Shown here: positions 57,370 through 63,997 of the stretch, piece by piece
Position numbering within the stretch: position 1 is the stretch's first letter
Layout of the letters: each line of letters opens with the position of its first letter
Source of the DNA: an uncultured Oscillospiraceae bacterium
GTDB lineage: Bacteria; Bacillota; Clostridia; Oscillospirales; Oscillospiraceae
Reading direction: 5' to 3'
Length of the DNA: 64,000 nt
Assembly: GCA_964435375.1 (NCBI GenBank)
Contig: CAYSYK010000004.1
Location: 3,954-67,953 of the forward strand
The notes under the pieces: model-generated
What the model saw: only the letters and a program-made list of their open reading frames with translations
Database searches by the model: none
What the model was told of the DNA's origin: nothing
Position numbers and translations under genes: made by a program

Positions 57370-58683
57370 TTACAGGCGGGAATTGATGTTCGCGGTGATG
57401 TCGCGAATGTTGTTTTGCAGGTTGGTGTCGCCGTCTTTCAGCGCTTTTTCGACCTTGCGGATGTTGTACAGTACGGTGGAGTGGTCTTTGGAAAATTCCG
57501 TCCCGATGTCCGGCAGGCTCAGATTTGTCAGCTTACGGATGAGATACATCGCCACCGAACGCGCCTCGGCAATGCCCTTGCTTTTCTGGCTTCCGCGCAG
57601 GAGCGCTTCGTCGATCGTGTAGAAATTGGCGACCTGCGTGATGATCAGACCCGGTGTCGGCAGGGCGTTGCCCTCGACGGTGAACATATCCTCGATGGCA
57701 CGCGAAACATTCGGCAGATCCAGCGGCATATTGTTCAGCTCCTGATAGGCAAGGATTTTTTTGACCGTGCCTTCGAGCTGACGGATGTTATTGGTGATGT
57801 TGAGCGCAATGTAATTACTTATGTCGTCCGTGAAGTTCAGACCCATTTGCGCGGATTTGTTTCTGATGATGGCCATGCGCGTTTCATAGTCCGGCGGCTG
57901 AATGTCGGCAAGCAGACCCCACTCAAATCGGGTGCGCAGACGGTCTTCCAGCGTGAGCATATCGCCTGGTTTGCGGTCGGAGGTCATGACGATCTGCTTG
58001 TGGCTTTCATAGAGCTTGTTGAACGTATGGAAAAATTCTTCCTGCGTACTTTCCTTGCCGGCGATGAACTGCACGTCATCGACGAGGAAAAGGTCAGCTT
58101 CCCGGTATTTGTTGTGAAACTCTATGTTTTTACCGCCTTGGATGGCGGCGATCAGCTCGTTGGTAAACTGGTCGCCTTTGATGTAGACGATGTTGGCATC
58201 CGGATTTTTTTTGCGAATGTCGTTGGCAATGGCGTACAGAAGGTGCGTTTTTCCGACGCCGGGAGGGCCGTAGATGAACAGGGGATTGTACACGTCGCCG
58301 GGGTGGTTGGAAACGGCAATGGCCGCACTGTGGGCGAAACGATTGGAAGGACCCACCACGAAACTGTCGAAATTGTACTGGGGGTTAAAGTCCATGGACG
58401 AACGCTTTTTCCCTTTGGAACGATAGACGTCATACTCTTGATCCCCATAGACAATCAGCTTGGCATCGGATTGAAAGATTTTTTGCATGGCTTCCCGGAT
58501 CAGCTCGGAATAGCGCTGGATGATGATGTCGCGGCGATAGTCGGAAGATGTGTGCAGGATCATACGGTCTTCCGTCAGCTCCACGACTTCCGTATCGTCA
58601 AACCATGTGGACACGATCACGGATCCGAGCTGCTCTTCCATATAGCCCAGAATTTTCGCCCATACGTAGGCGGATGAGTACAT
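57370..58683 (-). CDS. dnaA: Chromosomal replication initiator DnaA
   Basis: FVVGPSNRFAH, YNPLFIYGPPGVGKTHL, DDVQF, EEFFHTFN, RLRTRFEWG and DHSTV. Confidence 0.98.
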   Translation of the reverse strand: MYSSAYVWAKILGYMEEQLGSVIVSTWFDDTEVVELTEDRMILHTSSDYRRDIIIQRYSELIREAMQKIFQSDAKLIVYGDQEYDVYRSKGKKRSSMDFNPQYNFDSFVVGPSNRFAHSAAIAVSNHPGDVYNPLFIYGPPGVGKTHLLYAIANDIRKKNPDANIVYIKGDQFTNELIAAIQGGKNIEFHNKYREADLFLVDDVQFIAGKESTQEEFFHTFNKLYESHKQIVMTSDRKPGDMLTLEDRLRTRFEWGLLADIQPPDYETRMAIIRNKSAQMGLNFTDDISNYIALNITNNIRQLEGTVKKILAYQELNNMPLDLPNVSRAIEDMFTVEGNALPTPGLIITQVANFYTIDEALLRGSQKSKGIAEARSVAMYLIRKLTNLSLPDIGTEFSKDHSTVLYNIRKVEKALKDGDTNLQNNIRDITANINSRL

Positions 58684-58712
58684 AATTCTCTGCCCCTTTC
58701 AGTCTTTTACCC

Positions 58713-58781
58713 GGTGGAAAAGAGAAAATCTTCTCCCCATTATCTCAACAAAATCATACCATATTTCGGTGTAAAAAACAA
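58713..58781 (-). promoter_or_regulatory. dnaA promoter with one DnaA-box-like site in the leader
   Basis: TTGTTT (58781-58776), 17 bp, TATGAT (58758-58753) with extended TG; TTTTCCACC at 58721-58713. Confidence 0.55.
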
Positions 58782-58815
58782 GGTTTTTTTGTCGACATAC
58801 TATATAAAAAAGAAA

Positions 58816-58838
58816 TTTCCCCCGCCGAGCGGGGGAAA
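58816..58838 (-). terminator. Intrinsic terminator ending the minD-mgsA-hisS-deaminase run
   Basis: TTTCCCCCGC-3-GCGGGGGAAA followed on the minus strand by TTTCTTTTTT. Confidence 0.8.
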
Positions 58839-58866
58839 CGTGTCGAATTGACGGAAAAAATGCGCT

Positions 58867-59361
58867 TTATTTCTGATCTTCCGTGGGAACGAAGCTCAGC
58901 GTCAGGCTTTCCAGCCCCGTCTGCATACGGATGTAGTTGACACCCGCCGCGCCGAGCATCCGCTTGGATGCCAGATTGCTCATGGAATTGTTGTATTTGT
59001 CGGAGAGATAGATGACCTCGCGAATGCCGCATTGGATGATCGCCTTGGCGCATTCGTTACAGGGGAAGAGCGCGACATAGAGCCGACTTCCGCGCAGATC
59101 GCGCCCGTTGGCATTGAGAATGGCATTCAGCTCGGCATGGACGACGAAGGGATATTTCGTCTCCTCGCCCTCCCGCGTCCACGGAAATTCATCGTCGGAG
59201 CAGCCTTTGGGCATACCGTTGTAGCCGGTGGAGATGATGATATTATCCTGCGAAACGATGCAGGCACCGACCTGTGTGTTCGGGTCTTTGCTGCGTTTGG
59301 CCGCAAGCATGGCGATTCCCATGAAATACTCGTCCCAGCTGATAAAATTCTGCCGTTTCAT
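58867..59361 (-). CDS. dCMP deaminase family protein
   Basis: SWDEYFM, RSKDP, GYNG, HAELNAI and PCNEC zinc motifs. Confidence 0.9.
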   Translation of the reverse strand: MKRQNFISWDEYFMGIAMLAAKRSKDPNTQVGACIVSQDNIIISTGYNGMPKGCSDDEFPWTREGEETKYPFVVHAELNAILNANGRDLRGSRLYVALFPCNECAKAIIQCGIREVIYLSDKYNNSMSNLASKRMLGAAGVNYIRMQTGLESLTLSFVPTEDQK

Positions 59362-59391
59362 CGCAATACCTCCCGATTTTGAAAAAGTGAA

Positions 59392-60744
59392 TTATTCCAG
59401 AATGATCGGCCCGCTGTTTTCCTGCAACTGCCGGCGGATGAGTGTTGCCGCATCCTCGGCGCTGAGCGTGACCTGTTCACCCGTTTTCATGTTTTTGACG
59501 GAGCAGGCGTTTACGGCGATCTCATCCTCGCCGAGCAAAACGGCGAAGGGGACACCCAGCTTGTCCGCGTACGACATTTTTTGCTTAAACTTTTTCTGCT
59601 CGCCGTAGAGCTGTACGCGCAGACCCGCATCGCGCAGTGTTCCGGCCAAGGACACGGCCGCCGCGATGTTCTGCGTCATGGGCAGAACCAGCACGTCCGC
59701 AGGCGCGGCGGGCAGCTCGGAATTCAGAAGTCCCTGCTCGTCGAGCACGTAGAACAGTCTGGTCAGGCCGATGGAAATGCCAACGCCGGGCAGAGGCTTA
59801 TCAATATAGTATCCGGCGAGGTTGTCGTATCGGCCGCCGGAGCAGACCGAGCCGATCTCGGGATGGTCGAGCAGGGTGGTTTCGTACACGGTGCCCGTGT
59901 AGTAGTCCAGACCGCGGGCGATGGTCAGATCGACGGCAAAATTCGCCTCCGGAACGCCGAATGCGCTCAGGTTTTCGGTGACGGCTTTCAGCTCGGCCAG
60001 ACCGGTGTCGAACAGTTCGTTTTTCCCGGAATATGCCTCCAGCGCGGACAAAACGTCGGCATTCGTGCCGGAAATGGCGATGAATTTCAGAATTTCTTCC
60101 GCTTTTTCGGGCGCGATGCCGCATTCCTCAACGAGAAGGCCGTGCACCTTTTGCGCGCCGATCTTGTCGAGCTTGTCCACGGTACGCATGATGTCGCCGC
60201 TCTTTTCCGACAGCTCCGTCATGGCGTAGAAACCGTTGAGAATTTTGCGGTTGTTCACCCGAATTTGGAAACGGGTCAGGCCGAAGCCGCGGAATACCTT
60301 ATAGATGATGGCGGGGATCTCCGCCTCGTTGAGAATATCCAGCTTGCCGTCGCCGATGATGTCGATGTCGGCCTGATAAAATTCACGGAAACGGCCGCGC
60401 TGGGCGCGTTCGCCGCGATAGACCTTGCCGATCTGGAAGCGGCGGAAGGGGAAGGCCAGATCATTGTAGTGCAGGGCGACATATTTTGCCAGCGGGACGG
60501 TTAGATCAAAGCGCAACGCCAGATCGCTGTCGCCTTTGGAAAAGCGGTAGATCTGCTTTTCGGTCTCGCCGCCGCCTTTGGCGAGCAGAATCTGCGCATC
60601 TTCGATGATCGGCGTGTCCAGCGGCGCAAAGCCGTAGGAGGCGTAGGTCGTCCTGAGAATTTCCGCCATTTTCTCGAATTTTACCTGCTTGGCGGGCAGC
60701 AATTCCATAAAACCGGACAGAGTCCGCGGTTTGATAATGTCCAT
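59392..60744 (-). CDS. hisS: Histidine--tRNA ligase
   Basis: LRFDLTVP, YRGERAQRGRFREFYQ, RGLDYYTG, GGRYD and IGLTR. Confidence 0.96.
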   Translation of the reverse strand: MDIIKPRTLSGFMELLPAKQVKFEKMAEILRTTYASYGFAPLDTPIIEDAQILLAKGGGETEKQIYRFSKGDSDLALRFDLTVPLAKYVALHYNDLAFPFRRFQIGKVYRGERAQRGRFREFYQADIDIIGDGKLDILNEAEIPAIIYKVFRGFGLTRFQIRVNNRKILNGFYAMTELSEKSGDIMRTVDKLDKIGAQKVHGLLVEECGIAPEKAEEILKFIAISGTNADVLSALEAYSGKNELFDTGLAELKAVTENLSAFGVPEANFAVDLTIARGLDYYTGTVYETTLLDHPEIGSVCSGGRYDNLAGYYIDKPLPGVGISIGLTRLFYVLDEQGLLNSELPAAPADVLVLPMTQNIAAAVSLAGTLRDAGLRVQLYGEQKKFKQKMSYADKLGVPFAVLLGEDEIAVNACSVKNMKTGEQVTLSAEDAATLIRRQLQENSGPIILE

Positions 60745-60765
60745 GTTTGTCCTCCGGAGGGAAAA

Positions 60766-61179
60766 TCAGTATCTCGTTTTGTTGTGCAGCATTTCGCGCC
60801 AATCCAAATCGCCGCGCTGCAGACCCATGATGAGCATTTCCGCGGAGGCCAGATTGGTGGCAACGGGGACATTGTGCTTGTCGCAATGGCGAATGGTCTC
60901 CACCATCTGACTGTCGTCCCAAGCGTCGGTGGAGTTCGGATCCGTGAACATCATCACGAGGTCGATCTCGTTGTAAGCGATGCGGGCGTTGATTTGCTGA
61001 TGGCCGCCCTGCTTGTGCGAAAGCAGCAGCGTGATGGGCAGACCCGTATTGTCCGCGATCAGGCGGCCGGTGGTGGCGGTGGCAAACAGATTGTGCTTCA
61101 TCAGAACGCTTTTGTAAGCGGTGCAGAACTGAACCATCAGCTCTTTTTTCTTATCGTGAGCAAGAAATGCAATATTCAT
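60766..61179 (-). CDS. mgsA: Methylglyoxal synthase-like protein with degenerate active site
   Basis: AHDKKK, ATATTG and PVATN retained, but GGDQQ reads GGHQQ and PHxxD is absent. Start moved to 61179. Confidence 0.8.
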   Translation of the reverse strand: MNIAFLAHDKKKELMVQFCTAYKSVLMKHNLFATATTGRLIADNTGLPITLLLSHKQGGHQQINARIAYNEIDLVMMFTDPNSTDAWDDSQMVETIRHCDKHNVPVATNLASAEMLIMGLQRGDLDWREMLHNKTRY

Positions 61180-61208
61180 CGTGATTCTCCCTTTCTTGAA
61201 TGGTCGGA

Positions 61209-61937
61209 TTATAACGGGATCGCGTGTCCCTGTATTCTTTTGGCGATGCGCTTGCACGCGGCGGCTGCGCCGAGGCGCGTATATTGCAGAAGCGGCTTTC
61301 CGTGTGCCGCGGCAAGGCTGATGTTGGGGTCGGTCGGGACAATGCCCAGAAGCGGCAGGCCGATGGTGTCCATCACGTCGTCGATGTTTTTGTCCATGGC
61401 TTTCAGAAGGTCGCGGTATACGCGATTGACGATCAGGCGGACGTTTTTAATCTCCAGCTTTTCCAGCTCCTGCGCCGCACGTTCAACACTGCGGATGGAG
61501 GCCGGATCCGGGAGCGTGACCATGATGCAGCGGTCAGCGGCGGTCGCCGCAAAGCGCATACCGTCCCCGAGGCCGGACGGGCCGTCGATCAGGACGAAAT
61601 CAAAGTCGTGTCGCGCCTGCTGCAGCAGTGCGGCGAAGCTGACCGGGGAAATGTCGACCGCGTCGGCATGAATGGGCGCTGTGAGAAAGGAAAGCGCGGG
61701 GTAGGCGGGATGAACAGGCGCGGCGTGCAGGGGATAGTCCCCGCGGCAGATGTCGGCAAAGCTGAGCGCGTCCTGCTCGGAAATGCCGAGAAACACATCC
61801 AGATTGCGCAATCCGACGTCCGCATCTATGCATAGCACGCGTCGGCCGTCCGACACGAGTGCCGTGGCGACGGCGGCGCATACGGACGATTTCCCCGTGC
61901 CGCCTTTGCCGGAAAGAAATGCAATCACTTCACCCAA
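61209..61937 (-). CDS. minD: MinD-family P-loop ATPase lacking the C-terminal membrane-targeting helix
   Basis: SGKGGTGKS deviant Walker A, DADVGLRNLD, DGPSG and LIVNR; ends GHAIPL. TTG start at 61937 after GGAGGT. Confidence 0.8.
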   Translation of the reverse strand: MGEVIAFLSGKGGTGKSSVCAAVATALVSDGRRVLCIDADVGLRNLDVFLGISEQDALSFADICRGDYPLHAAPVHPAYPALSFLTAPIHADAVDISPVSFAALLQQARHDFDFVLIDGPSGLGDGMRFAATAADRCIMVTLPDPASIRSVERAAQELEKLEIKNVRLIVNRVYRDLLKAMDKNIDDVMDTIGLPLLGIVPTDPNISLAAAHGKPLLQYTRLGAAAACKRIAKRIQGHAIPL

Positions 61938-61961
61938 ATGCCACACCTCCCATTGTCAATT

Positions 61962-61997
61962 TTGCTTTATTATAAAGCAATAACGCACAAATTGCAA
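61962..61997 (-). promoter_or_regulatory. sigma-A promoter of minD overlapped by a palindrome
   Basis: TTGCAA (61997-61992), 17 bp, TATAAT (61974-61969); TTGCTTTAT-T-ATAAAGCAA at 61962-61980. Confidence 0.7.
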
Positions 61998-62105
61998 GTA
62001 GATTTCGCACATTTTCCGTGAATTTTTTATCATTTTATACAAAAAACATCCCTTCAAAGCGAAAATCTCCGAAAAATTTTCGTCCGCGGAAGAAAATCGT
62101 TTGTC

Positions 62106-62134
62106 TGGACAATCCATAGGGAATCTGTTATAAT
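62106..62134 (+). promoter_or_regulatory. sigma-A promoter of the CotH-family gene
   Basis: TGGACA-17-TATAAT with extended TG. Confidence 0.7.
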
Positions 62135-62161
62135 ACGGAAAAAGGAAAAAGGAGACGCTCT

Positions 62162-63997
62162 ATGCGATATGTTTTGAAAGCAACGGCGTTGCTTTTGCTA
62201 GCTTGCTTGCTTTGCGGCTGTACCTTACTGCCGGGAGCGCTCGGCACCGGCACAAGTTCCGACGGCCTACCCTCGGCCTCCCAGACCGACTTCAAACCCG
62301 ACCCGACAGGCGGCAACGATATGCCGGGCGACGCACTTTCGGAGGAAATGCTCTATCGCAACCTGTTCGATTTCAACTGCAAGGTGGAACTGCGCTTGGA
62401 TATGGACGAAAAGCAGCTTGCCGCCATGCAGCGCGATTACGAAGCTTACGGCAACCGCGGCTCCAAATCGCCCATTTATCGTATGGCCGATCTGCACGTG
62501 ACCCTTACGACCCCGGACGGAAACGTCTACCGTTACACCGTCGAGCAGGTGGGCGTGCGGATGAAAGGCAATACCTCCCGCACGAGCTTTTACAGCGCGT
62601 CGGGCGGAATTTATAATCTAATCCACTTGAAACTCAGCTTCCAAGAAACCTTCGACAAGGAAGCGTACTACGGCACCGATGCCCTCGTCTGGGAAAACGA
62701 CGAAAGCCGCAAGGCGCGCAAAGAGCGCACCTTTGCCACGCTGGAAAAAATGGACATCCGCTGGAACAAATGCAACGACGCGACCTACATCCGCGAGTAT
62801 TACGCCTTTGAAATGTACCGCGCCAACGGCGTGCTTGCGCCGCGTACCAACCTTGCAAGCGTGGATTGGGCGGGATACCACTGCGGCGTTTACACCATTT
62901 ATGAACCTGTGGACAAAATTTTCTTGGAACGCAATTTGCCGACGGAAAAGCAGGGCGGCGACCTGTATAAGCTGGGCTGGACATCGGTCGGCGCGAATTT
63001 CACGAGCGAGAATTCAATCGGTGTCGAGAATGAGGACGACGGCCTCTTCTTCACCTATGACCTGAAAACCAATAAGAAAAAATCCGACCACGCCGCGCTC
63101 CGGCAGTTTATTCAGACGCTCAACGGCGGCGGGGTGACCAAGCAGACCCTGCAGAATCTTGTCGATATGGATTCTTTCCTGTCGTTTGCGGCCGTGTCCT
63201 ATTTCTTGGGAAATCCCGACGATTTGCGCAACAATTACAACAATTGCTACGTCTATTTCCCGCCGGAGGGCGGCTGCCTGTTCATCCCCACGGATTACGA
63301 CCGCTGTCTGGGTCTGACCTACGAATGGGACCCGACCGGCGACGGCGTGACCTCGGACGGCCCCTTTACCCTGCACCTTGCGGCCAACGGCGAACCGCAG
63401 AGCAGTCCGCTGTTTTTGTACACCGTCTGTCAGGGCGGATTTTATGTCGAAGAATATACGCACAGATTGCGGCAGATTGCCGCGTCGCAATGGATGACGC
63501 TTTCCAACTACCAATCGCTGTTCGACAAGGCAAAATCCCGCTACGGCAACCTCTGCACCCCCGATCCGCGCTTTTCCAATGCCGCCGCCCGCCGCAACGC
63601 CATGACCATGGACGGCTCGGACGGCAATTGGACGATCGAGGCGTATTTCAGCGAAAAACTGGCAACATTCGAGCGCGCCATGCGCGGCGAATTGCCGTCC
63701 GAGCAGCTCCCGTCCGTCGGCGTGTATATCCGCGCGGAATTTACGAACTGGGACATGCTGCCCGAATATCGGATGGAAGAAACGGACGATGGCCTTTACC
63801 GCCTCACGATTCCCGGCGGCGCGCAGTTCAAGGTCTATGACGAGCAAAGCGGTGCATGGTACGGCACGGAAGCGCTGAGCGAGAACACAAGCGTGTGGTG
63901 GGGTTCGGGCGAGTACGGCAACATCATCCTGTCGGAAGGAACGTATCAGGTCGTGTTTGACCCTGCCGCGCGAACCGTCACCGTGACGGAAGCGTAA
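62162..63997 (+). CDS. CotH kinase family lipoprotein with C-terminal beta-sandwich-like domain
   Basis: Lipobox LLCG-C; GVRMKGNTSR, IREY, GVYTIYE, DDLRNNYNN and IPTDYD resemble CotH motifs; C-terminal IRAEFTNWD...FKVYD domain. Confidence 0.75.
   Translation: MRYVLKATALLLLACLLCGCTLLPGALGTGTSSDGLPSASQTDFKPDPTGGNDMPGDALSEEMLYRNLFDFNCKVELRLDMDEKQLAAMQRDYEAYGNRGSKSPIYRMADLHVTLTTPDGNVYRYTVEQVGVRMKGNTSRTSFYSASGGIYNLIHLKLSFQETFDKEAYYGTDALVWENDESRKARKERTFATLEKMDIRWNKCNDATYIREYYAFEMYRANGVLAPRTNLASVDWAGYHCGVYTIYEPVDKIFLERNLPTEKQGGDLYKLGWTSVGANFTSENSIGVENEDDGLFFTYDLKTNKKKSDHAALRQFIQTLNGGGVTKQTLQNLVDMDSFLSFAAVSYFLGNPDDLRNNYNNCYVYFPPEGGCLFIPTDYDRCLGLTYEWDPTGDGVTSDGPFTLHLAANGEPQSSPLFLYTVCQGGFYVEEYTHRLRQIAASQWMTLSNYQSLFDKAKSRYGNLCTPDPRFSNAAARRNAMTMDGSDGNWTIEAYFSEKLATFERAMRGELPSEQLPSVGVYIRAEFTNWDMLPEYRMEETDDGLYRLTIPGGAQFKVYDEQSGAWYGTEALSENTSVWWGSGEYGNIILSEGTYQVVFDPAARTVTVTEA

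Follow-up and report, generated by a model that had tools for sequence, protein, structure and literature searches.

The window analysed here, a stretch of 64,000 nucleotides from an uncultured Oscillospiraceae bacterium of the genus Faecousia (formerly CAG-110), carries on its reverse strand an operon-like row of genes, the second of which encodes a protein resembling methylglyoxal synthase (MgsA). This gene (termed here the mgs-like gene, and its product the MgsA-like protein) has an intact reading frame that starts with an ATG at position 61179, 3' of a ribosome-binding site (aaagggaga). It lies 29 nt downstream of a gene for a MinD-like ATPase and is followed by hisS, after which comes a gene of the cytidine/dCMP-deaminase family (Pfam dCMP_cyt_deam_1). 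The coordinates of these genes, of a promoter-like and a terminator-like sequence that flank them, and of the residues discussed below are given in Table 1. An Rfam scan of positions 58500-62400 (E<=1) detected neither a T-box nor any other relevant leader. Further along the same strand gyrB, recF, dnaN and dnaA lie in a row, which puts some 2 kb between the mgs-like gene and the replication-origin gene cluster; most other Faecousia loci do not share this closeness. Divergent from the operon is a gene whose product belongs to the CotH-kinase family and has an N-terminus resembling that of a lipoprotein (LLACLLCGC); this gene runs past the end of the window.

Table 1. Genes, putative signals and diagnostic residues at the mgs-like locus (positions within the window)
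Feature	Position	Strand	Remark
MgsA-like ORF, 137 aa + stop	60766..61179	(-)	orthologue of the Clostridial MgsA, probably non-catalytic
CAT codon 60: His where MgsA has its catalytic base, Asp71	61000..61002	(-)	direct read
Codons 54-56: Ser-His-Lys in place of the Ser65-Gly66-Pro67 lid	61012..61020	(-)	
TGG codon 87: Trp where MgsA has His98	60919..60921	(-)	
AHDKKK, residues 7-12: kept equivalents of H19, D20 and K23	61144..61161	(-)	
ATATTG, residues 33-38: kept phosphate loop T45/T47/T48/G49	61066..61083	(-)	
MinD-like P-loop ATPase of 245 aa; opens the operon	61209..61946	(-)	TIGR01968, 175 bits
hisS (histidyl-tRNA synthetase)	59392..60744	(-)	start 21 nt past the mgs-like stop codon
Sigma-70-like promoter TTGCAA-17-TATAAT, 5' of the MinD-like gene	61969..61997	(-)	consensus match only
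Intrinsic-terminator-like hairpin 3' of the deaminase gene, likely operon end	58815..58839	(-)	consensus match only
gyrB, recF, dnaN, dnaA	52640-58683	(-)	
CotH-kinase-family protein	62162-63997	(+)	continues past the window end

In E. coli MgsA, D71 is the catalytic base, H98 is an accessory residue, K23, S65 and T45-G49 hold the phosphate, and G66-P67 cover C1-C2 of dihydroxyacetone phosphate (DHAP); in the C. difficile enzyme (MGS), with whose residue numbering that of the MgsA-like protein coincides, D60 is the base, H8 and H87 are helpers, G55 makes a backbone contact, and K12, S54 and T34-G38 bind phosphate (PMC7843640). At these positions the MgsA-like protein has H60, H8, W87, H55, K12, S54 and TATTG. 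When aligned by HMMER with B. subtilis MgsA (6f2c; E 2e-30), residues 54-62 (SHKQGGHQQ) pair with SGPLGGDQQ and, within the segment spanning residues 79-92 (TDPNSTDAWDDSQM), the stretch DPNSTDAWDDSQM pairs with DPLTAQPHE-PDV. Hence Asp71 corresponds to His60, His98 to Trp87, and the Gly66-Pro67 lid to His55-Lys56, the last being a change beyond those that the initial annotation had stressed. Asp101 pairs with Ser90 or Gln91, neither of which is an Asp, because the loop is longer by one residue. Retained are H8 and D9 (equivalent to H19 and D20), all of the phosphate-binding residues (K12, T34, T36, T37, G38 and S54), Asp80-Pro81 (D91-P92), the GG-QQ frame and an invariant C-terminal GDLDWR segment. 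The initial annotation had described much the same mixture--SHKQGGHQQ in place of SGPxGGDQQ, with a CAT His codon at 61002-61000; a replaced DPLxxxPHxxDV loop; and a kept AHDKKK, TxTT loop, Ser and first Asp of DP--and the codon read, the 6f2c alignment and the residues found at 7-12, 33-38, Ser54 and Asp80 agree with it.

Family models differ in where they place the protein: it scores 43.8 bits against Pfam MGS (PF02142; cut-off 24.1; residues 15-108) and 116.6 bits against the NCBIfam NF003559 equivalog, which is above the cut-off of 84, whereas its 114.6 bits against the TIGR00160 equivalog fall below the cut-off of 146.9. An AF2 model based on a 57-sequence alignment (pLDDT 93.7) predicts that the protein adopts the MGS alpha/beta fold of about 130-150 residues; its top Foldseek matches are all MgsA structures (TM 0.85/0.92, rmsd 1.0 A; 1wo8, 6f2c), followed by the allosteric domain of CarB/CPS1 and then by PurH. 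Relative to the MgsA enzymes of B. subtilis (6f2c; 47% identity), C. difficile, Thermus (1wo8/2x8w) and E. coli (1b93), the length, fold and order of secondary-structure elements are the same, and H19, D20, K23, T45/T47/T48, S65, GG-QQ and D91-P92 are shared; the differences lie in the TIGR00160 score, in a 91-101 loop that is one residue longer, and in the substitution of His for Asp71, Trp for His98, Ser/Gln for Asp101 and His-Lys for Gly66-Pro67. Measured against what defines an MgsA, the base, the His98-Asp101 set and the lid are missing and the phosphate-binding set (K23, T45, T47, T48, G49 and S65) is present; measured against what defines a pseudoenzyme, there is homology to an active family whose catalytic residues have been replaced, together with purifying selection and wide retention. 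The MGS-like domains of CarB/CPS1 and the N-terminal domain of PurH share the fold and lack methylglyoxal chemistry (for CPS1 and CarB the TM-score to the model is about 0.65), but they are parts of large enzymes and only about 17-21% identical, whereas the MgsA-like protein is free-standing and far nearer in sequence to true MgsA. The CarB domain binds IMP/UMP and the PurH domain AICAR/XMP--that is, phosphorylated nucleotides held in an equivalent cradle.

Selection was examined within Faecousia using 99 coding sequences, with codons counted in the 97 of standard length. The median pairwise dN/dS of the mgs-like gene is 0.06 (at dS about 1.1), whereas hisS reaches 0.12 and the MinD-like gene 0.23. 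His60, Lys56 and Gln57 are each conserved in 99/99 sequences, His55 in 98/99 and Trp87 in 94/99, which indicates that the remodelled pocket is itself under selection; K12, T34, T36, T37, G38 and S54 are conserved in 96-99 of the 99. Because both His codons are in use at position 60 (CAT in 52, CAC in 45), it is the amino acid itself that is maintained. The SHKQGGHQQ motif is found in 117 of 121 sequences consisting of the query and its 120 closest 90%-identity database clusters, some of which represent thousands of metagenome sequences. This recurrence, along with that at all 99 Faecousia loci, excludes chance and sequencing error, just as the initial annotation had maintained in denying a sequencing slip; and the strain-private decay that it had named as the contrary outcome is not what the dN/dS, the conservation of His60 and the two His codons reveal. 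The catalytic residues of this protein have been lost under selection.

Across the Oscillospiraceae a homologue is present in 118/121 genomes and 99/101 genera, with 47-89% identity. Key alignment columns were tabulated for 100 Oscillospiraceae loci and for 10 loci from other families of the order; in a further table of 78 Oscillospiraceae genera each genus is represented by one copy, always that in the shared gene neighbourhood. In E. coli numbering, Asp71 and Gly66 are each kept in 4 of the 78 genera, Asp101 in 14, and His98 and Pro67 in none. Among the phosphate-binding residues Thr48 is kept in 77 genera, Thr45 in 76, Lys23 and Gly49 in 75, Thr47 in 61 and Ser65 in 58; Asp20 is kept in 76, His19 in 68, and the C-terminal Trp127 and Arg128 in all 78. 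Thus the coordinated losses around an intact phosphate pocket, which the initial annotation proposed for this one protein, hold both within Faecousia and across the 78 genera. The GGHQQ clade, whose extent that annotation had suggested surveying, comprises about 13 genera; the loss of catalytic residues extends well beyond the clade and takes in nearly every sampled Oscillospiraceae genus. At position 71 the 78 genera have S (31), H (12), A (10), V (5), I (5), D (4), N (3), T (3), Q (2), Y (1), G (1) and C (1). The idea that a new catalytic or phosphorylatable residue is uniformly present at this position (position 60 of the MgsA-like protein) was considered and rejected, inasmuch as 26 of the 78 genera have Ala, Val, Ile, Gly, Asn or Gln there. 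A few homologues elsewhere have one in-frame TAA inside the match (G039:C1:106760-107164, as well as G106, G152, G215 and G222); these may be pseudogenes, or the match may have been extended past the stop codon.

On a maximum-likelihood tree, the Oscillospiraceae copies that have the shared gene neighbourhood form one clade (SH-aLRT 99), within which the His60 forms make up a sub-clade of 21 rows and 13 genera (SH-aLRT 96) where the His60/Trp87 pair is fixed. Position 60 requires at least 39 changes on this tree (among S, H, A, V, I, N, T, Q and others), a count that is approximate because the tree is built from 139 columns and many of its forks are unresolved.

The nearest homologues in other Clostridia are 49-61% identical and mostly canonical, with the complete SGPxGGDQQ/PHEPD set in 13 of the 29 sampled; the RGDLDWR tail is already present in them, and a MinD-like gene lies just upstream in 19 of the 29. 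Because it shares both this tail and this upstream neighbour with canonical Clostridial MgsA, the Oscillospiraceae protein is its orthologue and no ancient paralogue. Forms without the Asp also occur in other families of the class (having Y, S, T or L instead, or a shortened GEQQ), and in 6 of 10 other families of the order. The Faecousia form is a single branch within a loss that runs through the whole family, and through part of the class, in the Clostridial MgsA orthologue.

A canonical MgsA was sought, as the initial annotation had advised, and none was found in 81 Faecousia species genomes: none of the 81 has a TIGR00160 match over the cut-off, and 79 have exactly one match, all at 105-119 bits. 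The assembly containing the window (1.82 Mb and 90% complete) has just one further MGS domain, in a 1058-aa ORF that is taken to be CarB and has the length of CarB. Elsewhere, a second copy with the full canonical motifs (SGPLGGDQQ and PH[DE]PD; 35-41% identity to the query) was retrieved in ten cases, eight from Oscillospiraceae and two from other families of the order. On the tree every one of these falls with ordinary MgsA, and neither a minD-like gene nor hisS adjoins any of them. That genomes with a canonical MgsA have it as a separate gene while keeping the degenerate one is direct evidence of different functions for the two.

The MinD-like protein scores 175 bits against TIGR01968, below the cut-off of 212.9, over model positions 2-242 of 261. 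It has the deviant Walker A motif, whose signature and P-loop lysines do not vary among 68 relatives. It ends about 19 positions before the end of the MinD model and is without the C-terminal membrane helix; this last stretch of the model is presumably the site of the membrane-targeting helix. No other gene of the genome matches MinD better, so that it appears to be an orphan and the only gene of MinD type there; neither a MinC nor a MinE domain was found. Within Faecousia its sequences are just 50-59% identical, a far quicker evolution than that of the MgsA-like neighbour. A complex prediction for the two proteins, using alignments from the same 68 loci, gave a score of 0.13, which is below the mark and is counted neither for nor against their interaction.

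Gene order is well conserved within Faecousia, where the MinD-like gene is upstream at 78/80 loci, hisS is downstream at 79/80, and the full order minD-like/mgs-like/hisS occurs at 76/80. Of the 78 genera, 60 have the MinD-like gene upstream and 18 lack it there within the flanks examined, and 63 have hisS downstream; among the 10 loci from other families of the order, the three genes are in this order at 7, a MinD-like gene is upstream at 9, and a HisRS homologue is downstream at 8. The link to hisS is specific to the order and that to MinD extends through the class. HisRS in the downstream slot is 60-85% identical to that of the window in most genera and only 25-28% identical at nine loci (L147, L162, L163, L165, L174, L179, L184, L189 and L210), so that this operon position in Oscillospiraceae genera seems to be filled by either of two HisRS types. 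One contig labelled as a Succinimonas sp. MAG (Gammaproteobacteria; L043, NZ_JBGVMK010000157.1) has a Faecousia-type minD-like/mgs-like/hisS locus at 91% protein identity and is probably mis-binned.

Given the loss of the Asp, the accessory His, Asp101 and the Gly-Pro lid, the MgsA-like protein most likely turns DHAP into methylglyoxal too slowly, if at all, to be useful. Its catalytic positions have drifted or been rebuilt while its phosphate-binding residues, GG-QQ frame and C-terminal segment have stayed fixed, which is the pattern expected if the chemistry of MgsA is gone and the phosphate site and oligomer contacts are still used. Hence we consider it somewhat probable that this is a functional, non-catalytic pseudoenzyme, whose fold and phosphate-binding residues have been kept for a regulatory or scaffold role; from these patterns we infer a loss of activity, the binding of a ligand and the existence of a partner. 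On such a mechanism, the mgs-like gene would be co-transcribed with the MinD-like ATPase gene and hisS; the old active site would still bind phosphate or a phosphorylated metabolite or nucleotide; and the protein, acting as a regulatory or scaffold subunit, would pass this ligand information on, most plausibly to the MinD-like ATPase. It is gene order that is suggestive of the latter partnership and from which the putative link is drawn, and the conservation of K12, T34 and T37 could stem from fold stability rather than from ligand binding.

Several other explanations bear on the same observations. A decaying gene--that is, a strain-private lesion or assembly error in a true mgsA--has in its favor only that Asp (GAT) turns into His (CAT) by a single-base change; in view of a frame that is intact in 99 species-level loci, the low dN/dS, an unvarying His60 spelled by two codons, and clusters that cover thousands of metagenome sequences, its probability is negligible. 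That the protein is still an enzyme, with His60 serving as the general base and with His55, Lys56 and Trp87 forming a remodelled substrate site, so that it produces methylglyoxal slowly or performs a different chemistry on a phosphorylated substrate, is a more substantial proposal. A histidine can serve as a general base, the phosphate-binding residues and H8 are kept, the NF003559 score is above an equivalog cut-off, and the near invariance of His60, His55, Lys56, Gln57 and Trp87 in Faecousia, with the His60/Trp87 pair fixed across about 13 genera, is what might be expected of residues that still do chemistry or that bind a specific ligand. Sister lineages, however, have Ser, Ala, Val, Ile, Asn, Gly or Cys in place of His60 along with the same conservation elsewhere, which implies that the function shared by the family does not depend on a base at that site; His98, Asp101 and the Gly-Pro lid have been lost too. 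Even conservative D71 mutants, moreover, were reportedly found by Saadat and Harrison in 1998 to lose several orders of magnitude of activity. We therefore regard retained catalysis as unlikely.

A purely structural role, in which the MgsA oligomer, a hexamer in the canonical enzyme, is a scaffold or adaptor (for the MinD-like ATPase, for example) and the old active site is empty, would fit the fact that the strictest order-wide conservation lies outside the pocket, at C19, Y22, E71, D73, C99, G123, W127 and R128, and that the pocket shows some drift at S65, T47 and H19. Yet K23, T45, T48 and G49 are kept in 75-77 of the 78 genera even as the adjacent catalytic positions vary freely, a contrast that is difficult to account for unless the phosphate site is still in use and that renders an empty pocket quite unlikely. 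An extension of the non-catalytic reading may be offered tentatively, as something that we doubt more than we believe: Clostridial MgsA may have a second, non-catalytic job with the adjacent MinD-like ATPase--coupling the glycolytic or phosphate state to cell division or cargo positioning, for example--and this job would be the sole survivor in the Oscillospiraceae. In Faecousia the pocket, comprising His55, Lys56, His60 and Trp87 plus the phosphate-binding residues, would then have been rebuilt for another ligand, perhaps a nucleotide; by analogy with the MGS-like domains of CarB and PurH, its basic and aromatic make-up suggests as much.

Literature searches on these topics found no published non-catalytic MgsA and no published MinD-MgsA link, and we know of no accepted explanation for the occurrence of mgsA in a cell-shape/division gene block of Firmicutes. 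In a bioRxiv preprint on Clostridium MgsA, mgsA overexpression gave no detectable methylglyoxal; residue loss is not discussed there. What is new here is a widespread, apparently non-catalytic variant of a well-known enzyme family. A protein whose chemistry has been discarded and which is nonetheless under stronger constraint than hisS suggests a function other than catalysis, and the Oscillospiraceae offer a natural system in which to seek such a function of MgsA; likewise, a family in which a single catalytic position has been replaced dozens of times independently in nature should be useful for studying how pseudoenzymes originate. There are also consequences for annotation: the MgsA-like protein scores above the cut-off of NCBI's NF003559 model, a close relative of it is already labelled 'methylglyoxal synthase' in at least one source, and, judging by their residues, mgsA-annotated genes in the Oscillospiraceae, which are abundant gut bacteria, probably make no methylglyoxal. 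Methylglyoxal producers are now linked to host physiology (PMC12291648). Metagenomic counts of such producers would include many genes that probably do not produce it.

Two of the residues that are conserved throughout the order deserve separate mention. C19 and C99 are invariant in the whole MinD-adjacent family (68 orthologues across the order), and the residue corresponding to C19 in B. subtilis MgsA is a Thr; a redox or metal role for this pair of cysteines is conceivable.
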